Numbered from the stretch's first letter, positions 48,060 to 56,840 are shown. The stretch: DNA of 64,000 bases from an uncultured Gammaproteobacteria bacterium (GCA_964633995.1 CAZWKN010000002.1:5266-69265); one strand, 5' to 3'. Notes: generated by a model from the letters alone, not told the origin. Translations and numbers: made by a program.

Positions 48060-49133
48060 TTATTTTAGCACTGTAACTGTCGACGAAGACTCATTGATCG
48101 TGAAGTGAGAATAACTGCCTGAGAGCTTGGTATTTCGCGATAACATCCAAATTAAATAGTTGTATGGCATAGTGGACGAGGCAAACTGGGAACCTGGCCC
48201 AGACAGTGTTATCTTGGGTGTGGGCGTATTTGACTTTGTGAAAACGTACCGTGAAATCCCCAGGCGATGAGCATAAGAAAGGCCGTAATGATTTGGAGTA
48301 AGAAAATAATGGTAGTAAATTATGGCTACAGTACTGCCGATACCGCCCAACACCAACAGGGAGGTCGTTAATATCTTTGGCATCTTTGATAAAACCAACC
48401 CCACCAAAAGAGCAACCGGAGCAATAAATAAGGCTAAGTAGGACTCGGAAAACGGAGTAATGCCAGATGCTCCCACCAAAATTCTCCTGGCAACCCAGGC
48501 AAATACTCCAAGAGTTTGAACTGGGCCAGATAGTAAAAAGGGCAGGATGCCAAAGCTAAATCCAAGTATAAATAGTAGGGTTGCTTTAGATTTTGTGGGG
48601 AGCAATAAGATTGCCACCGGCCAAAGAATAAAAGTGAGAAGATGTAATTGGTATAAAAATCCCAAAAACAGACCTGATAATAAATAACGTTTTTTAATCA
48701 TCAAAATACCAAAAATAGTCATAAAAAGAGGAATAGGGGAAGTGTGATATGCCATACGAGAATGAAGCACTGCATGAGGAGCAAAAGCGATGACCACTGC
48801 CGAGAACAACCCGGCTTTTCGGCCAAACAAAGTGCTTGAGAAAGAATAAAGCATAATAATAGTTAACAAACCAAGGATTGATGTAAAAATAACACCGAAC
48901 TGGAGACTGGGTCCTGTGGGTATGAGTAGATATGTCCAAAGAGGACCTTGGTGCAACCAGGTGATACTACTTGTGATTCCCAATAACGGAAGTTTGGAAG
49001 TTTGAACTGCATCCCTGGCTGATAAATAGAACCAAGCCATATCCCCAAAGAAAGGAACTTCTGTCGTAATACGGTAAAAGCGAACTGGAAAACTTAGTAA
49101 AATGATTATTATCAGTGGGGCGAAACGTTTCAT
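48060..49133 (-). CDS. polytopic membrane protein, GT-C-like
   Basis: 357 aa, N-terminus FPVRFYRITTEVPFFGDMAWFYLSARDA resembles PMT/ArnT-like GT-C starts. Confidence 0.4.
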   Translation of the reverse strand: MKRFAPLIIIILLSFPVRFYRITTEVPFFGDMAWFYLSARDAVQTSKLPLLGITSSITWLHQGPLWTYLLIPTGPSLQFGVIFTSILGLLTIIMLYSFSSTLFGRKAGLFSAVVIAFAPHAVLHSRMAYHTSPIPLFMTIFGILMIKKRYLLSGLFLGFLYQLHLLTFILWPVAILLLPTKSKATLLFILGFSFGILPFLLSGPVQTLGVFAWVARRILVGASGITPFSESYLALFIAPVALLVGLVLSKMPKILTTSLLVLGGIGSTVAIIYYHYFLTPNHYGLSYAHRLGISRYVFTKSNTPTPKITLSGPGSQFASSTMPYNYLIWMLSRNTKLSGSYSHFTINESSSTVTVLK

Positions 49134-50359
49134 GGTGAAATCTCGTTTATGGTTTTGACGACCAAGAAAACCGCGACCGGAACTGCCAAAAACGACCCAA
49201 TTATTGCTGCAATACCAGCTCCGATTAGTCCATAACTATTGACCAATGGCACAATAGAGACCGAAAGTCCCAGGATACTGGCCAGAGTAACCCAAGTCAC
49301 AAAGGACTGTTTTTTTAAAGCCAAAAACAAGGGCAATGATGTCTGGGAAATGGATTTGGCTATTCCATATATCGATAATATCTTTAAAACGGGTATTGCG
49401 GCAGTCCAGTTTGGACCAAAACCAATAGTTACGATGGGAACCGCTAACAAATACACGCCGATTCCACTTGCGACAGCAATGACAACCTGGACAAAGGCCG
49501 TACGCAAAAATGCCGATTTTAGACGATTTTTCTCACTTGATATCTGGGAGTAAATTGGGAAAGTAACCCTACCAAATACGTCTGAGATTTCTGAAATTGG
49601 GATGCTACTAACTTTATAAGCAATATCGTATATACCCAAAGATGATTTGCCCAACAATCTACCGACGACGATGTTGTCCAGATTTTGATAGAGATAGTTA
49701 AAAATGCCGGCAACTGTGATCCATTTTCCTCGCCCAAGAATTTTTCTGGCACGTAGGTTGTCGAAGTGAACCCTGGGAACAGGTGAAAAAAGTTTCCAGG
49801 ACAGAAGGACTTCTAATAATGCTCCAGCTATCATCCCCCAGACTAAACTAGAGGCGGATTTGGTGATTAGGGCAGCAAGTACTGAGACTAAACACTCGAC
49901 CAAAAATAATACTGATTTGAATCCGAATTCTTTGCCAAACAATAGATTTTTTTGAAGCTTTATTGACGAAGGATTGATAAACCCCCTAATTAACGGGACT
50001 ACACTAATAAGGTAAATAACAGCCAAAGAATCTGGGTTTTTGAAAAATAAAGAAACGAAAGGCGCACATATAAGAACAACCAAGAAAACGAGAACTCCAC
50101 GAATGATAGAAATAAGCCAAGCCGTATCAATGTAGGCGTCAATATCCCCTTTTTCCTGAACTAAAAAAATGTTTACCCAGGTCTCGGTGAAAATTTCCAA
50201 AAAGGCTAAAACCAAATTTGCTACACCAAAGGTCCCAAATTGAGCCGGAATAAGCAATCTCGCTAATATGGCGGTCCGAACGACTGTTATCCCCCGCATA
50301 AACATGCGAAGCGACATCGTCCAAGATAGGCCATGAAATGTTTTTTTGAAATAACTCAT
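49130..50359 (-). CDS. polysaccharide (Wzx-type) flippase, MOP superfamily
   Basis: Start moved to the ATG at 50359 (MSYFKKTFHGLSW...), directly abutting the upstream GT2 stop. 12-14 TM helices. Confidence 0.5.
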   Translation of the reverse strand: MSYFKKTFHGLSWTMSLRMFMRGITVVRTAILARLLIPAQFGTFGVANLVLAFLEIFTETWVNIFLVQEKGDIDAYIDTAWLISIIRGVLVFLVVLICAPFVSLFFKNPDSLAVIYLISVVPLIRGFINPSSIKLQKNLLFGKEFGFKSVLFLVECLVSVLAALITKSASSLVWGMIAGALLEVLLSWKLFSPVPRVHFDNLRARKILGRGKWITVAGIFNYLYQNLDNIVVGRLLGKSSLGIYDIAYKVSSIPISEISDVFGRVTFPIYSQISSEKNRLKSAFLRTAFVQVVIAVASGIGVYLLAVPIVTIGFGPNWTAAIPVLKILSIYGIAKSISQTSLPLFLALKKQSFVTWVTLASILGLSVSIVPLVNSYGLIGAGIAAIIGSFLAVPVAVFLVVKTINEISP

Positions 50360-51267
50360 TTTAAAGTGGAAAACAAACCGACAGCAGATCCAAATAATAC
50401 CGACAAATCCGCCGTTATTTGTAATATCGGAAGCCAGATAATTGCTCGGATATCTTTGACGTAACGATAATTTTTTCGAATCGAAAGTAGTAGATAGCAA
50501 ATCGCAAGTAGGATAATAAATGGTTTTAGAATAGTTAACTCAAATGATAAAAAGAAAAGATAGACAAACACTAAATAACGCATGGCTAGGCGCTTAACCT
50601 GAGGTCGAATTATTTTGGCTTGAATGTCACCAATAGCAAATCGCATAAACATCCAGGCTGCTTGAATTAATGTTTTACGCGGAATCCAGGAAACAACGGC
50701 GAGTGGGGCGAAAGTAAATGAATAGCCTAATGATTTTAGTCGATGGGCATAAGCATAATCTTCATTGTGATATAACGTCGGATCGAAACCCCCTGACTTG
50801 TCCCAGACTACACGCCTTAGAGCCATGGATCTAGTGGATGGATAAAACTCTGATTTGTTGGCAACATCGGGCATAACTAAGACGTATGGAATTAGACATT
50901 TTTGGAAAATGTTTTTTGATTCGCCGCGATAATAACCACTAACAACTGAAACCGCGGAGTCGGCAAAGGGTTTCAATAACTCTTCTAACCAATTTAAATC
51001 TGGCACACACCCTGCGTCTGTAAAGGCAATTAATGGGTATTTCGATTTTGATACACCAAAATTTCGCCCTACTGATCTGTTTCCTGGATTTTGAAAGTAC
51101 CTAACACCTTTTGTTTTTTGAAGCAGTTTCCAGGTGGAGTCCGTAGATCCACCGTCGACGATAATTATTTCGGTAGCAGAAGATGTCTGGTTGGTCAGCG
51201 CTTTAATGAGGGGGAGTAGCGTGTCTTCTTCGTTAAAAACCGTCACTATTACCGATACTTTTGCCAT
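50356..51267 (-). CDS. glycosyltransferase family 2
   Basis: VSVIVTVFNEEDTL...IIIVDGGSTDST. 303 aa with C-terminal TM helices. Confidence 0.75.
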   Translation of the reverse strand: MAKVSVIVTVFNEEDTLLPLIKALTNQTSSATEIIIVDGGSTDSTWKLLQKTKGVRYFQNPGNRSVGRNFGVSKSKYPLIAFTDAGCVPDLNWLEELLKPFADSAVSVVSGYYRGESKNIFQKCLIPYVLVMPDVANKSEFYPSTRSMALRRVVWDKSGGFDPTLYHNEDYAYAHRLKSLGYSFTFAPLAVVSWIPRKTLIQAAWMFMRFAIGDIQAKIIRPQVKRLAMRYLVFVYLFFLSFELTILKPFIILLAICYLLLSIRKNYRYVKDIRAIIWLPILQITADLSVLFGSAVGLFSTLK

Positions 51268-52170
51268 AATCTTTCGTATTGAGATGCAAGATTGTCCCAG
51301 GTTTGTTTTTTGGCCCAGGCTTGAGCATCCTTGACCATTTTAGCCTTTTGAGGCATCGAAAGCGACAATAACTTATTTGTAAGTTCTGAAACCGATCCTC
51401 CTATCACCATGCTTGAGTTTTGGGGGTGGGTTAACAAATAGTCCTTTCTAAGGGGGTTTGAGTAAGAAGCTATTACTAATTTTCCGACTAGCATTGCCTC
51501 CAAGATTGTGAGATAGCCCGACGCAAAAACTAGATCTGATTTGTTAAAAAAACTTGTGACATCGCTGGTTTGACCGGTAAGTTCCGTTAATTGCAACCTT
51601 AGTTTGATGGATAATTCACGGCAAATATCGTAGCCAGTGTCTGGGTCTAGTCTTCCAACAAATAGAATTTTTTTAAACTGCGCCATATGTGATTGCGGTG
51701 GGCTTTGTGCCATACCAAGTAGAAATAAATGTGCCCACACAAATGTTGGCATTTGCCATAACTTCGGTAATTTTGCGAATAATTCTATTTTTTAACGGGA
51801 TAGGGAATTTGCCTTCCCAGCCATGATAGGTTACAAAGGTGTTTTTGAATGGATATATTATTTTGAAAGGAATGATCCAGAAATAAACATCGTGGGCGTG
51901 AATTACATCTGCATTATTTAGAAGTTGTTCGTGGGATTTTAACCATTTCCAAATAAACCATTTTTTAGACGATGTTGACGCATTTTTTGTGGGAATTCGA
52001 TAAATCTCGAGACCGTCTATCACTTCATGTTCTGGTAGTTTTGGGTCGTGCTGTTCGGTAATAATTGCTATTTTGTGATGTTTTTTTAATATTTGGGAAA
52101 TGCCATAAACATGTTTTTCCACCCCGCCGATGTGGGGATAAAATAACCTGGTCAGGAAAACGACATTCAT
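51249..52170 (-). pseudogene. glycosyltransferase family 4 (GT1 fold) gene split by a frameshift
   Basis: N-terminal domain ORF 51673..52170 (FYPHIGGVEKHV, HAHD). C-terminal domain ORF 51249..51752 (FVGRLDPDTG, ILEAMLVGKLVIA). The two are in different frames and overlap by about 80 nt. Confidence 0.5.
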
Positions 52171-52913: not shown

Positions 52914-52969
52914 AGTAGTATTTTACCGTAATGTTGATTCAGTTACCAAACCAGGTGTAGACTTAATTT

Positions 52970-55543
52970 GTGATCAAGTTGTGTCGAGCGTTATTGGTGG
53001 TATTTGTTTTAGAATTTACACTTCTAATATCTTCATCATATTTCTCTATCGGAGCATTTGTAGATAGTTCCTCGTGGATAACGACCACCTCTATGCCATA
53101 CTTGTTGGCCAGCCATGTTTCGTTTGAGGATGCAGGTTATTTATATGTCTTGGGTGGTTCGGCCAGGATTGGAAATAGTCGATCCGAGATTATTCGTTCA
53201 CTAGCTCAGCTTGACGGATTATTGCCCCCATGGCAAATTGATTCACATTTTCCATTAAGACTTATCTATCACTCCATTGCTAAACAGGACGATAGTGTTT
53301 ATGTTCTTGGGGGTTACTTTGATAACATAGATGGCCTAATTGGTTTTAATAACAAGGTTTACCTTGCTAAATTACAAGCTGGAGGAGGAGTGGGGGCATG
53401 GCAGGAGGTGGCCAGTCTGCCAATGGGACTCGGGCTGGGGGGGTCGGTGATTATAAATAACCGACTTTATTACGCTGGGGGAACATATGGAAGCCAAAAC
53501 CAAAATGTATACGTGACCAACATAAACGCCGATGGAACTTTGACTGGGTGGACCGTGGCCGGTACGCTTCCCTACTCTCTTGAGGGTTTCGGAATGATGG
53601 GAATTGACGGCAGAATATTAATTGCTGGGGGTCGAAGTGACAATTCAGGCGGGTATATGAGTAAGGTTCAATTGGGAATTGTTAATTCGGATGGCACCAT
53701 AGCTTCTTGGGTTGAACAACCCGAATTGCCTGCTTCTTCATACCGGGGAGGTTTGGCCAGGGTAGGAAATCAACTAATATTCTCCGGCGGAGTAAATGGT
53801 TCCGGGTATTCTGACAAAGTTTATTTAGCTGATATACTGGAGAACGGAGATATTTCTGATTGGACACTTTCAACAAACAAACTGCCTTCTGGAAATTGTT
53901 GTTTTTCGACTGCTGTCTCTGGAAATTATTTGTACATCTTTGGTGGTCACGATGGCGGTCAATACTTGGATACCGTATGGAGATCGTCTGTCGGTCCCAT
54001 TCCCACTTCCTCGCCATTGCCTTCTCCCACTATCAATCCCACCCCAACCCCGACTCTTATTCCGACCCCAACCCCACTCCCGTTATTGATATTAATCCCG
54101 GGTGGAGGGGCGAGTTGGAATTCGGAAGCAATGCTACACAACAAAACCAACATTCCGGATGCCCAGTGGAAAATTCCCAGCTTTATTAAAACGTATGATG
54201 GTTTAATTAAGACTATTAAAGATCTCGGTTATTCAGAGGGAAAAAATTTCTTCGTTTATGCTTACGATTGGAGAAGGCCAATCAATATAACAGGAACTTA
54301 TTTTGCAAATTTTGTCATCAATTCGGTATTGACTGGAAGGCCAGATGGCACTAAGGTGAATATAGTTGGCCACAGTGAGGGTGGTTTGGTGGCGAGAAAA
54401 TTTGGTCAATTGAATTCCGACAGGGTTAATAAGCTAATTACTGTTGGCACTCCCCATGAGGGTGTTGCTAATTTTTATAATACATGGGAAGGGGGCTTAA
54501 TAGAGGGATTATCATGGGATAGACTGTTTGGAATTGAGATTATTTTGGGAGTAAATAGATCCCGATACCCAAGTAGAGTGTCCGAGATTCAAAACATGGT
54601 CCCCAGCTTGAAACAGATGCTTCCTGTTGAAAATTACTTAATGAGGCCCAATGGGTCTTACATTAATATTGGCGACATGGTGGTTAAAAATACTTTTTTA
54701 CCTGCCTTAAATGACGACCTCTTTTACATACTTCCAAAACTATCAACCCTGTCGGGTAAAGGATTTACCACCCTTAGGAGCTTGATTGTTGTACCTAGAA
54801 ATTCAATCGACAAACTGGCTGATAAATGGGTCGACGGGAAACCGGTAAATAGACTGTCTTCCGATGGCGATAATACTGTACTTTTGGGTAATGGACTGTT
54901 TCAGAATGGCTTTGAAAACGTAATCATGGAAGGATTGGACCATGAGGGTTTGGTTCAAAAGGCCACCGGAATTAGTAATATTTTGCAATTGTTGGATTTG
55001 CCTGAAAACTCCCAAGAACAACCTTTTTACAAAAACAAAAAGATGATTATAGTGACAGTTCTTTCACCAGCAACTTTTGTCGTAGTTGATCCAGATGGTT
55101 TAACAACATCCCCAACTGACGGTGTCGTTGTTATTCCCGACCCAAAGGATGGTAACTATTTGGTCAAATTAACCTCGACAGGAAGAGGACAATATACTGT
55201 TTTATTTGGAAGAACCAATGGAGCAACTGACGGTTGGAGTGAAGACTTTGGATTTTTTTCCAAGAAAGGTCAACAAGCAAGTTATGAATTTAAAGTAAAA
55301 TATTTGCTACCAAAGTTGGGAGCCGATCCATATTCTGACATCATAAAAAGACTGAAAAAGTTTAGAAAATACGAAGTATGTAGACTCCTGGAAAAATATT
55401 TCGAGGTCTCCCGAGGGCGTAGGGAAATTCCTGAATGGATGATAAAATCTTTAGATAATCTGACCGAGAAGGTTGTTGACCAGACTGAAAAAAGTGAGTT
55501 TAAAGTAATAAGGCGTGATATTGAAAGATATTTGGAAGATTAG
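52970..55543 (+). CDS. secreted fusion protein: Kelch-repeat beta-propeller + Pro/Thr linker + LCAT/PGAP1-like alpha/beta-hydrolase (lipase/acyltransferase) + C-terminal beta-sandwich
   Basis: N-terminal signal/TM. Repeated Kelch cores (YVLGG, YYAGG, LIAGG, IFSGG, YIFGG). Linker IPTSSPLPSPTINPTPTPTLIPTPTPLP. YAYDWRRP (LCAT-family YDWR motif) and VNIVGHSEGGLVARKF (GHSxG nucleophile elbow). Confidence 0.6.
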   Translation: MIKLCRALLVVFVLEFTLLISSSYFSIGAFVDSSSWITTTSMPYLLASHVSFEDAGYLYVLGGSARIGNSRSEIIRSLAQLDGLLPPWQIDSHFPLRLIYHSIAKQDDSVYVLGGYFDNIDGLIGFNNKVYLAKLQAGGGVGAWQEVASLPMGLGLGGSVIINNRLYYAGGTYGSQNQNVYVTNINADGTLTGWTVAGTLPYSLEGFGMMGIDGRILIAGGRSDNSGGYMSKVQLGIVNSDGTIASWVEQPELPASSYRGGLARVGNQLIFSGGVNGSGYSDKVYLADILENGDISDWTLSTNKLPSGNCCFSTAVSGNYLYIFGGHDGGQYLDTVWRSSVGPIPTSSPLPSPTINPTPTPTLIPTPTPLPLLILIPGGGASWNSEAMLHNKTNIPDAQWKIPSFIKTYDGLIKTIKDLGYSEGKNFFVYAYDWRRPINITGTYFANFVINSVLTGRPDGTKVNIVGHSEGGLVARKFGQLNSDRVNKLITVGTPHEGVANFYNTWEGGLIEGLSWDRLFGIEIILGVNRSRYPSRVSEIQNMVPSLKQMLPVENYLMRPNGSYINIGDMVVKNTFLPALNDDLFYILPKLSTLSGKGFTTLRSLIVVPRNSIDKLADKWVDGKPVNRLSSDGDNTVLLGNGLFQNGFENVIMEGLDHEGLVQKATGISNILQLLDLPENSQEQPFYKNKKMIIVTVLSPATFVVVDPDGLTTSPTDGVVVIPDPKDGNYLVKLTSTGRGQYTVLFGRTNGATDGWSEDFGFFSKKGQQASYEFKVKYLLPKLGADPYSDIIKRLKKFRKYEVCRLLEKYFEVSRGRREIPEWMIKSLDNLTEKVVDQTEKSEFKVIRRDIERYLED

Positions 55544-55544
55544 G

Positions 55545-56795
55545 ATGAGAAGATATTTTGCAGTTTGGATAGTGTGTTCTTTGATTTTTTTGATTCATTA
55601 TCGATTTACTGGTCAGGCGGTATACGGTGACGGAATCGATTACTGGGCATATCTACATAGTGTGTATTTTGATAAGGATTTAGATTTTTCGAACGAATAC
55701 CGGCACATCTACAATCCCACTAATAACAATTCTCGTATTGAGACCTTATACGAAACTATTCATAAAACCTGGAAGACAGACAAAGGGTTGACTGACAACC
55801 TTCACCCACCGGGAACGGCGATATTATTGGCGCCGTTTTATATCCTTTCCGACCATGTAGTGCGGGTTCTTAATTTCTTTGGGGCCCATTTGGCAAGAAA
55901 TGGATACTCTGACACCTATCAAATAATCTGTGGGCTGGGGGCAATAGGATATGTCGTTGCTGGTCTCGCATTTATGGAACGGACGCTTCGGATTTTTCAA
56001 TTCGAAAAAAAAACAAGCTTTCTCGCAACTGTGGGGATGTTACTTACCTCTCCACTGCTTTACTACAGCTCAATCGATGTTTTGAATTCACATTTCGCTT
56101 CCTTTTTTTGGGTTTGCGCTTTTTGGGCAATATGGTTATCACCAAAATATAATACAGGGCTATTAGCTGGCCTAATTGCGGGTATGGCCATACTGAGTCG
56201 AAATCAGGAATTTATTTTAATTGTTCCTGTTCTTATCCGGGATCATGGTTTAAAACTTGTTACGTTTTTTATAGGGCTACTTATTGCACTATTGCCCATG
56301 TTTTATACGTGGAGTGTTTTGTATCAATCAATCTTTCACCACACATACTTACATACATTTATTTACAAAGGAATTATTGGTAGTTTGATTCACCCAATAA
56401 ACGGCCTACTTACCAAAACCCCCCTACTGTTGTTTCTTGTGTTTAGCATCCCCCTGGCCTGGAAGAAAGTTGTTGGAAGCTGGAAATACTTATTACTGTT
56501 TGGAATCATACAAATGGTTATTATCACCATTCAGGGCGGATGGGTTGCGGCTGCTTACGGAGGGAGAATGTATATTTCCAGTTTACCTTTGTTTGCTGCA
56601 TTGTTGGCGAATCTTATTCGCATTAAATCGCGTGTTTTTGTAGTCTTGAGCCTGTTTGCGGTTCTTAACGTCTTCAGTATATTGAATTTTGGTTTATTTG
56701 AAAAAGAAAGTGGAAATATGGAGGGAAGAGGGCTGGAAAACTCGACAAGGTATCGTCTGGAGCGATTGTGGACCCGACAGGGCTCGAACCTGTGA
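55545..56795 (+). CDS. polytopic membrane protein, GT-C-like (mannosyltransferase-like)
   Basis: Start moved to the ATG at 55545 just after the upstream stop (GGAAG SD). 416 aa, more than 10 TM helices. The 3' end overlaps tRNA-Val on the opposite strand by 27 nt. Confidence 0.45.
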   Translation: MRRYFAVWIVCSLIFLIHYRFTGQAVYGDGIDYWAYLHSVYFDKDLDFSNEYRHIYNPTNNNSRIETLYETIHKTWKTDKGLTDNLHPPGTAILLAPFYILSDHVVRVLNFFGAHLARNGYSDTYQIICGLGAIGYVVAGLAFMERTLRIFQFEKKTSFLATVGMLLTSPLLYYSSIDVLNSHFASFFWVCAFWAIWLSPKYNTGLLAGLIAGMAILSRNQEFILIVPVLIRDHGLKLVTFFIGLLIALLPMFYTWSVLYQSIFHHTYLHTFIYKGIIGSLIHPINGLLTKTPLLLFLVFSIPLAWKKVVGSWKYLLLFGIIQMVIITIQGGWVAAAYGGRMYISSLPLFAALLANLIRIKSRVFVVLSLFAVLNVFSILNFGLFEKESGNMEGRGLENSTRYRLERLWTRQGSNL

Positions 56796-56840
56796 CCCCA
56801 CGCATGTGAAGCGTGTGCTCTACCACTGAGCTACGGATCC
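56769..56840 (-). tRNA. tRNA-Val (CAC)
   Basis: Reverse complement GGATCCGTAGCTCAGTGGTAGAGCACACGCTTCACATGCGTGGGGTCACAGGTTCGAGCCCTGTCGGGTCCA. Anticodon loop TTCACAT. CCA not encoded. Canonical TTCGAGC T-loop. Confidence 0.8.

Follow-up and report, generated by a model that had tools for sequence, protein, structure and literature searches.

What does a bacterium do with a lipase that is built onto a Kelch propeller? The question is raised by a gene at positions 52970..55543 of a 64,000 nucleotide (nt) stretch of DNA labelled as an uncultured Gammaproteobacteria bacterium (GCA_964633995.1, CAZWKN010000002.1:5266-69265). The whole stretch was analysed; it is called the window here, and positions are counted from its first letter. 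A prediction made from the sequence alone, referred to below as the original prediction, had described the product as an unusual secreted fusion of a Kelch propeller, a Pro/Thr linker and a lipase or acyltransferase domain of the LCAT family. In the best explanation the product is a modular lipolytic enzyme exported by a cell that, to judge from relatives, is patescibacterial (Microgenomates, Amesbacteria-like). As to its action, we give a probability of about 0.5 to the reading that the predicted product is a (phospho)lipase or transacylase that is exported, directed to a surface and active on foreign membranes.

Domain architecture of the Kelch-lipase protein

A six-frame list of open reading frames (ORFs) gives a plus-strand product of 857 amino acids (aa) with a GTG start codon. 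Its domain order is an N-terminal signal or anchor helix, a six-bladed Kelch propeller, a disordered Pro/Thr linker, an α/β hydrolase, a β-sandwich and a helical tail (Table 1). A full-length AlphaFold2 model built on a 36-sequence alignment had a mean predicted local distance difference test (pLDDT) score of 90.5. In this model residues 2-24 form a helix, 50-340 are all-β, 344-365 are disordered, 372-675 are α/β, 692-776 form the β-sandwich and 787-856 form four helices. A second model of residues 366-857 (63-sequence alignment) had a pLDDT of 92.5 and a predicted template modelling (pTM) score of 0.90. The Pro/Thr-rich linker named in the original prediction was thus found, beginning at residue 344 and modelled as disordered, and the C-terminal β-sandwich and helical tail that it proposed are both present in confident models. 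Its "at least five Kelch-type blades" stood in part: every core that it quoted was found, but the count is six, with YVLGG present twice.

Conservation was scored in the 150 best-scoring family representatives, clustered at 50% identity. Near-invariant residues of the β-sandwich are S699, P700, G728, G740, Y742, G747 and W756, and family matches mostly run on through this domain. Similarity in the helical tail was undetectable even among syntenic orthologues. The whole protein has four Cys residues, at 5, 310, 311 and 804, which rules out a disulfide within the lipase half.

The hydrolase is a divergent LCAT/LPLA2-like lipase

The profile PF02450 for LCAT (lecithin:cholesterol acyltransferase) matched the hydrolase at 33.1 bits, above its cut-off of 21 (E 4.8e-8), over profile positions 68-179 of 392 only. 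The motifs YAYDWRRP and GHSEGG lie at residues 430 and 467, and the family call of the original prediction holds. PF02450 was also matched by 48/50 sampled family members, with a best E of 3.2e-17. Weaker Pfam matches to Palm_thioest and PGAP1 overlap the LCAT match around the nucleophile elbow.

A profile of 63 family members was compared with the PDB. LPLA2 (lysosomal or group XV phospholipase A2, PLA2) was matched with E 1.8e-12 in one alignment that runs from the YDWR region to the C-terminal His, and LCAT with E 2e-10. Tle4 (4R1D), a type VI secretion system (T6SS) (phospho)lipase effector of Pseudomonas aeruginosa (PMC4832377), gave a local match at E 3.9e-13. Family I lipases followed at ~3e-8, and a glycosylphosphatidylinositol (GPI) inositol-deacylase gave a local profile match only (E 1.4e-5). 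In the Foldseek search with the 366-857 model, LPLA2 (4X92) had E 1.1e-12 and LCAT (4X96) 1.9e-11, then came BlEst2 and family I lipases at ~1e-7. As modelled, the closest solved fold of the hydrolase is that of LCAT/LPLA2. In the viral structure library BFVD, large DNA (giant) viruses account for ranks 2-4, each an LCAT-family or phospholipase protein. The top BFVD match, A0A7D3UVQ5, is an unnamed viral protein of 463 aa (E 2.7e-17 over 511 columns), possibly matched through the hydrolase and a second domain.

The catalytic triad of LPLA2 is Ser165/Asp327/His359 (PMC6027918). The predicted counterparts Ser469, Asp634 and His658 align with it and are near-invariant: position 469 is Ser in 147/149 representatives and Cys in 2, Asp634 is kept in 149/149 and His658 in 148/148. 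An intact triad, which the original prediction had singled out for checking, is accordingly predicted from these alignments. Other near-invariant residues are P377, G378, W400, Y432, W434, H468, G471, G472, G623 and G633. Within YDWR, Y432 and W434 are kept in 149/150, D433 in 142 and R435 in 135, while P377 and G378 are kept in 145/150. Between the elbow and Asp634 lie a helical insertion (~501-582) and β-hairpins (591-633), and the alignment to the LPLA2 cap region is heavily gapped. The sequence comparisons show an LCAT/LPLA2-like catalytic unit that is predicted to be intact. We place the hydrolase on a divergent bacterial branch of the LCAT/LPLA2-like lipases, one that has accessory domains of its own.

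Unusual residues at the oxyanion hole

The oxyanion hole of α/β hydrolases is built from backbone amides. In LPLA2 an atypical Asp13 follows the PG strand beside the oxyanion hole, where it tunes the pH optimum and acyl selectivity; the same position is Cys31 in LCAT and M/V/L in type I lipases (PMC6027918). The window protein has Gly379 here (54104..54106), a residue found in it alone, and 140/150 representatives have L/M/F/I/H. At the elbow it has Glu470 (54377..54379), where 133/149 have L/M and others F/Y; E occurs in 2 sequences (one besides the window's) and Q in 1. An independent assembly (run SRR8893623) encodes a protein 100% identical to that of the window. Gly379 and Glu470 are both confirmed by it, so these odd active-site residues are not sequencing errors.

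A degenerate hydrolase was considered and is ruled out by the essentially invariant triad. The related proposal that the protein is a non-catalytic surface adhesin, with the hydrolase as a decayed pseudo-enzyme scaffold, draws on the unique Gly379 and the rare Glu470. We regard it as highly improbable, given that essentially all 150 representatives keep Ser, Asp and His although their overall identity is ~25-40%. Moreover, a hole made of backbone amides can persist despite side-chain changes, so Gly379 and Glu470 need not inactivate the enzyme. The alignment suggests instead a possible retuning of substrate or pH preference, with the acid shifted to the elbow.

The N-terminal domain is a six-bladed Kelch propeller

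The Kelch cores are YVLGG at residues 59 and 111, YYAGG at 167, LIAGG at 217, IFSGG at 270 and YIFGG at 322. Three Pfam Kelch profiles passed their cut-offs: PF24681 (58.1 bits versus 50, E 1e-15), PF01344 (36.5 versus 20.1, E 3e-9) and PF13964 (32.9 versus 25.3). Foldseek against the PDB returned the six-bladed Kelch domains of NS1-BP, KLHL12, Keap1 and LZTR1 with E ~1e-21, TM scores of 0.80-0.86 and a root-mean-square deviation (rmsd) of 2.6-3.0 Å. A different propeller, such as a pyrroloquinoline quinone (PQQ) type, had been offered as a check on the original prediction; it is ruled out by the Pfam cut-offs passed and the six-bladed Kelch fold matches. The nearest relatives of the Kelch module are very large (~1,400 aa) uncharacterised proteins, a few of them source-named Saccharibacteria or Saccharimonas.

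Start codon and predicted export signal

Residues 1-28 are the sole strongly hydrophobic stretch of the protein, the only place with a 19-aa window of Kyte-Doolittle hydropathy >1.6, and AlphaFold places the helix of residues 2-24 within it. Relatives have hydrophobic N-termini of an equivalent kind, and the N-terminal signal of the original prediction is in this sense signal-like. A conserved "W...LPY..A.HVSF" sequence also extends 5' of Met42. A database copy of the protein (P0001, NCBI-derived) has 816 aa and begins at Met42, without the signal or anchor segment (window 52970..53093), while the gene call in another assembly begins at Val10 (848 aa). The Met42 start is ruled out by the conserved upstream sequence and the signal-like segment; P0001 is therefore truncated and the longer reading is right. 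This comparison supports a probable true start at or near 52970. The gap to the divergent methyltransferase gene is 56 nt.

Export through the N-terminal segment is predicted. Relatives from the Candidate Phyla Radiation (CPR) that were examined have signal-like N-termini, except one fragment that lacks its N-terminus. One relative (P0031) has an additional C-terminal transmembrane anchor.

A conserved fusion in a fixed genomic slot

Full-length Kelch plus LCAT homologues (P0002-P0006, P0008, P0016, P0046) were found in CPR metagenomes at 23-39% identity. Named ones belong to Candidatus Amesbacteria and are annotated as "hypothetical", "PGAP1 family protein" or "GPI inositol-deacylase PGAP1-like domain-containing protein". 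Conservation of the fusion, the other check attached to the original prediction, is borne out in relatives, including the syntenic P0002, P0003 and P0006. A one-off fusion is ruled out by these homologues of matching architecture and synteny.

P0002, P0003 and P0006 occupy the same slot as the window gene. It is divergent from a Wzy/GT2/x/Wzx/GT2/GT4/methyltransferase cluster (GT, glycosyltransferase), and 3' of it are signal peptidase I, ParB, L27, L21, FtsW, IleRS and FtsZ. The Kelch-lipase is a vertically inherited, syntenic core gene in Amesbacteria-type genomes. It also diverges fastest in its block while its catalytic residues are fixed (Table 1). Fast divergence with a fixed triad is typical of proteins that face other organisms; relaxed constraint is a possible alternative.

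Table 1. Features of the Kelch-lipase gene and its block, with positions in the window and amino acid identity to syntenic relatives.
Feature	Position	Strand	Basis	Identity
Complete Kelch/LCAT-like lipase gene	52970..55543	+	Six-frame ORF list, stop included; identical protein elsewhere and syntenic orthologues	
Shine-Dalgarno-like AGGTG	52953..52957	+	12 nt 5' of GTG start; sequence read directly	
Hydrophobic N-terminus, residues 1-29, predicted Sec signal peptide or anchor	52970..53056	+	Hydropathy, AlphaFold helix, relatives	
Six-bladed Kelch β-propeller, residues ~36-340	53075..53989	+	Pfam, Foldseek, six GG cores	27-42%
Pro/Thr-rich flexible linker, residues 344-371	53999..54082	+	Sequence; pLDDT <50 at 344-365; linkers likewise in relatives	
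LCAT/LPLA2-like α/β-hydrolase (lipase) domain, residues 372-675	54083..54994	+	PF02450, profile search, Foldseek, BFVD	35-41%
Ser469 codon, predicted nucleophile in GHSEGG	54374..54376	+	Aligns with LPLA2 Ser165 (AHSMG)	
Asp634 codon, predicted triad acid in DGDNTV	54869..54871	+	Aligns with LPLA2 Asp327 (GDGTV)	
His658 codon, predicted triad base	54941..54943	+	Aligns with LPLA2 His359 (SEHIEM)	
β-sandwich domain, family-conserved, residues 692-776	55043..55297	+	AlphaFold strands; conserved residues; family matches span domain	35-48%
C-terminal four-helix tail, residues 787-857, poorly conserved	55328..55540	+	AlphaFold helices 787-856	Not detectable
Multi-pass membrane protein, 416 aa, possible divergent GT-C glycosyltransferase	55545..56795	+	Begins 1 nt after lipase stop; 416 aa in independent assembly	
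ParB				82-85%
Signal peptidase I				72-77%
GT2				59-65%
IleRS				47-67%
FtsW				52-55%
Wzx				43-55%

The slot bears on two alternatives. One places the protein on the producer's own envelope, as a PGAP1-like deacylase or LCAT-like acyltransferase that remodels lipids, lipoproteins or lipid-linked surface glycan of that cell; the ligand of the Kelch domain would in that case be the polysaccharide made by the adjoining Wzx/Wzy cluster. The gene is arranged divergently, 56 nt from the Wzy/GT2/Wzx/GT2/GT4/methyltransferase cluster and upstream of signal peptidase I, and relatives keep the slot at only 29-40% identity. A possible GT-C glycosyltransferase is translationally coupled downstream, and PGAP1 (PF07819) scored above its gathering threshold (28.7 bits versus a cut-off of 24.3). 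That match, however, spans only 44 residues round the nucleophile elbow (455-498) and lies beneath the stronger LCAT match, while most of the relatives examined lack the downstream membrane protein here. Envelope enzymes with housekeeping roles are as a rule well conserved, whereas this is the fastest-evolving gene of its block, and the polysaccharide-cluster context was seen beside family members that have the Kelch module. We consider an own-envelope enzyme distinctly unlikely.

The other alternative is an offensive, membrane-lytic toxin with a function like that of Tle4. Prey or host bacteria would be killed or made permeable by it, with lipid harvest secondary. Tle4 was the best PDB profile match of all, through a YxW...GHSMGGLVAR stretch and more weakly at the PG strand and GDxTV, and fast divergence is also seen in effector proteins. 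The match is nevertheless local, with one significant stretch of ~60 residues, and Tle4 was not among the top 50 Foldseek matches. The neighbourhood in the window has no T6SS genes and no adjoining immunity-like gene, and a fixed syntenic core gene is not a mobile effector-immunity pair. A toxin is quite improbable on these grounds.

The family exchanges its N-terminal module

In exhaustive searching with HMMER, the lipase half matched 3,409 cluster representatives at E<=1e-3, of which 1,550 reached <=1e-10 and 620 reached <=1e-30. The best 150 are mostly 600-970 aa long, their lipase begins at residue 200-380, and the match reaches through the β-sandwich. In a sample of 50 sequences the N-terminal modules were GH130-like (GH, glycoside hydrolase) in 13, Kelch in 7, GH32N in 5, GH43 in 3, sortilin/BNR in 2 and 3-keto-disaccharide-hydrolase-like (lectin-like) in 2. 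There are β-helix modules too, and Pro/Thr linkers join the modules to the lipase and β-sandwich core. Local BLAST clustering grouped 30 of the 150 best representatives with the Kelch domain of the window. The largest BLAST cluster (101 sequences) was possibly inflated by common low-complexity linkers and was not used for the module count. These data show that the N-terminal module is exchanged across the family of the lipase and β-sandwich core. The original prediction had called the fusion unusual, but it is not singular. Since ~20% of the 150 closest representatives share the Kelch module and the rest carry others, the unit of interest is a modular family and not a single gene.

Named or genome-assigned full-length relatives are overwhelmingly Patescibacteria, including Amesbacteria, Collierbacteria, Shapirobacteria, Gottesmanbacteria, Paceibacterota and Jorgensenbacteria. 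A Chloroflexaceae/Oscillochloris branch has neither the signal segment nor an N-terminal module. A contig scan used the pattern [LIV][VI][GA]HS[ML]GGLV, which leaves out the GHSEGG of the window; Amesbacteria are not among the matches listed. Two full-length relatives of the lipase core (L006, L011) are on contigs labelled "uncultured Gammaproteobacteria bacterium" (TPA bins), which may reflect mis-binning, mislabelling or a real occurrence outside Patescibacteria.

The choice of modules is relevant to a third alternative, a generic esterase or lipase outside the cell that draws nutrients from substrates other than membranes, with the propeller as a carbohydrate- or polymer-binding module. Candidate substrates are free triacylglycerols, polyesters (polyhydroxybutyrate (PHB), cutin-like) and acyl groups on polysaccharides. 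The GH130-, GH43- and GH32-like propellers and lectin-like modules of the family would suit such an enzyme, as would weak profile matches to the PHB depolymerase PhaZ7, a cinnamoyl esterase and family I/II lipases, and "Triacylglycerol lipase" is among the database names. We still think it unlikely, in that the strongest sequence and fold relatives (LPLA2, LCAT, Tle4) act on phospholipids, and the very fast divergence of the Kelch domain among syntenic orthologues suits variable cell surfaces better than a uniform polymer. The corrections to the annotation (the start codon, six blades and not five, and the family definition) hold even for a generic lipase.

Proposed function

In the mechanism proposed here for a lipase acting on foreign membranes, we infer export or cleavage of the protein, a lipid substrate, a Kelch ligand, a foreign rather than self target and a nutritional purpose. 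The protein would leave the cell by Sec export through its N-terminal hydrophobic segment. The Kelch propeller would serve as a binding module and keep the enzyme attached to a ligand on a surface, probably a glycan or protein in the envelope of another cell, and the tether of ~28 Pro/Thr-rich residues would give the hydrolase reach to the underlying lipid layer. There Ser469, activated by His658 and Asp634, would attack an acyl ester of a glycerolipid and form an acyl-enzyme. Its resolution by water (lipase or phospholipase A) or by an alcohol acceptor (LCAT-like transacylation) would yield a fatty acid and a lysolipid. The conserved β-sandwich would be integral to the catalytic unit, possibly as an element that binds the interface. 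The released fatty acid or lysolipid could be taken up by the producer, as CPR bacteria are generally unable to make lipids.

In favour of a lipid substrate, the closest relatives of the hydrolase by profile, fold and viral library are all lipid-acting. CPR cells do not synthesise lipids and are enriched in lysolipids, and it has been proposed that they obtain lipids from other bacteria, possibly by way of phospholipase A (PMC7242380). Lipid harvest by the Kelch-lipase fits this proposal that lipids derive from co-occurring bacteria. The original prediction had suggested a targeting lipase or acyltransferase used where cells meet, and the data agree with such a putative role.

Several observations weigh against an enzyme of foreign membranes. 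The membrane-binding subdomain of LCAT/LPLA2 is largely missing: Gly379 and Tyr432 are 53 residues apart, versus ~116 between Asp13 of LPLA2 and the Tyr of its YDWR, less than half of the LPLA2 segment, and Pfam positions 1-67 are unmatched. A full-size membrane-binding subdomain therefore cannot exist. Similarity to LPLA2 is moderate in Foldseek (TM ~0.53, rmsd 6.7-8 Å). Both oxyanion-hole positions are atypical in the window protein, and its substrate preference or activity may differ. The alternative N-terminal modules are mostly carbohydrate-enzyme-like, which makes an acylated glycan, in place of a membrane lipid, a possible substrate, and the synteny beside the organism's Wzx/Wzy polysaccharide cluster may hint at a role on its own envelope. 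The Chloroflexi homologues without signal and N-terminal module indicate that the core enzyme is not intrinsically linked to symbiosis. Finally, the literature on CPR lipases and Kelch-LCAT fusions yielded no characterised family member and no paper on the family; the original prediction likewise knew of no characterised bacterial Kelch-LCAT fusion, and none was found in the literature searched.

CPR/Patescibacteria, which are ultra-small and symbiotic, account for much of bacterial diversity. Their membranes contain ordinary acyl lipids and are unusually rich in lysolipids, despite a general absence of fatty-acid and phospholipid synthesis (PMC7242380). The Kelch-lipase, from a family of hundreds of mainly patescibacterial clusters, is a concrete and testable candidate for lipid acquisition in CPR, and the module swapping of this family gives a way into the host specificity of bacteria that are nearly all uncultured. 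We tentatively extend the membrane-lipase reading to the family, although we hold the extension to be somewhat unlikely: the lipase and β-sandwich family would be the missing lipid-acquisition machinery of many CPR/Patescibacteria, with a swappable N-terminal module that sets the host range. As exported phospholipases or transacylases of LCAT type, its members would remove acyl chains or lysolipids from the envelopes of host bacteria, and the fast-evolving propeller or lectin module would choose the host surface recognised. By analogy with Asp13 of LPLA2, Gly379 and Glu470 would adjust the preference for substrate or pH in this lineage specifically. The Pro/Thr tether might be O-glycosylated by the coupled membrane protein of GT-C-like type.

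Neighbouring genes

The membrane protein encoded immediately downstream belongs to a Microgenomates-wide family of "hypothetical" proteins. Neither the single sequence nor a profile of it matched an entry in Pfam, NCBIfam or the PDB, while PMT_2 (GT-C, protein-mannosyltransferase/ArnT-type) was matched by 8/39 of its homologues (best E 1.8e-6). Asp43 and Asp45 in the first loop are invariant in its family. It is present at this position in L003 and absent from L001, L002, L004 and L005, and is thus not a constant neighbour. That it is a glycosyltransferase, conceivably acting on Pro/Thr linkers, is speculative. A minus-strand tRNA-Val (CAC) at 56768..56840 shares ~28 nt with the end of its plus-strand ORF, an unusual antisense overlap of coding sequence and tRNA. 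A scan of the window with Rfam found four tRNAs only.

In the interval from the lipase to signal peptidase I, the window has the membrane protein and tRNA-Val only and no Peptidase_C39_2 gene. L001, L002 and L003 each have one on the minus strand (245-246 aa) in this interval.

On the other side, the GT4 gene (51249..52170, minus strand) is split into overlapping frames, with the GT4 N-terminal part at 51673..52170 and a GT1-type C-terminal part at 51249..51752. A frameshift, from a pseudogene or an assembly error, is probable because L002 and L003 have a single gene of 334-341 aa; the GT4 equivalent in L001 is also shortened (251 aa). The longest ORF of the Wzx-type flippase (49130..50500, minus strand) has a TTG start at 50500 and overlaps the upstream GT2 (50356..51267) by ~145 nt. 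From this overlap and the 399-409 aa of flippases in relatives, its start is probably further downstream. A 357-aa ORF within the Wzx/Wzy cluster (48060..49133, minus strand) had no Pfam match, and in relatives this slot holds a 314-aa gene that also had no Pfam match. The ORF gave a match to TIGR04154 (archaeal STT3-type oligosaccharyltransferase) over residues 80-146 with E 5e-7, far below threshold at 28.5 versus 450 bits.

Comparison with known enzymes

The propeller of the window protein is six-bladed with a GG doublet per blade, as in KLHL12, Keap1, NS1-BP and the bacterial NanM-type mutarotases. The BTB/BACK domains of Kelch proteins such as KLHL12 and Keap1 are not in the window protein. 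Sugar-binding Kelch proteins of the NanM/mutarotase type gave weak matches only, far from the cut-offs of the NanM family (36 versus 45 bits in Pfam; 35 versus 243 for TIGR03548).

BlEst2 of Bacillus licheniformis (6WPX) and PlaB, a Legionella phospholipase A (6ZTI), were aligned by Foldseek over >500 columns with the 492-residue half model. As this exceeds the ~310-residue hydrolase, a shared layout of a hydrolase with an extra C-terminal domain is suggested, although the low TM of 0.30-0.36 indicates that the domain geometry differs. They have no sequence-level family tie beyond the elbow, and no propeller.

Family I.1/I.2 lipases (LipA of Pseudomonas aeruginosa; Burkholderia cepacia/glumae) are secreted and have a similar elbow and a hydrophobic residue after PG. 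Single-sequence PDB matches to family I reached 2e-6, and Foldseek matches ~1e-7 with an rmsd of 11-14 Å. Similarity to family I is not domain-wide: the matches cover ~50 residues round the elbow and rank below LPLA2/LCAT by profile and fold. Unlike the window protein, family I lipases are single-domain enzymes that need Lif foldases and lack YDWR, Kelch and the β-sandwich.

Tle4 (TplE, PA1510, 4R1D) shares the Y(N/D)W...HSMGGLVAR and GDxTV-type motifs and targets the membranes of other cells. Tle4 is delivered by the T6SS, has an immunity protein partner and lacks Kelch, whereas the window protein has a Sec-type N-terminus and only local similarity. Full-length homology, VgrG/Hcp linkage and an immunity gene, which are features of the Tle4 family, were not found, and around the window gene lie polysaccharide, signal peptidase, ParB and cell-division genes.

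LPLA2 and LCAT (PF02450) share with the window protein the PGxxG strand, YDWR, the GHSxG elbow, the GDxTV acid motif and the late His. Both are extracytoplasmic enzymes of lipid surfaces, with an acyl-serine intermediate that is resolved by hydrolysis or transacylation (PMC6027918). They have no Kelch propeller, Pro/Thr tether, β-sandwich or helical tail, whereas the window protein is bacterial (CPR) and most of its membrane-binding subdomain is missing. An acid lies near the oxyanion hole in both, on the N-terminal strand in LPLA2 (Asp13) but at the elbow in the window protein (Glu470). The parts of the Kelch-lipase are known folds, and such proteins have been in the databases under generic names since the first CPR genome surveys. 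Here they form an LCAT/LPLA2-like lipase with a bacterial-specific β-sandwich and interchangeable propellers that probably serve in targeting.

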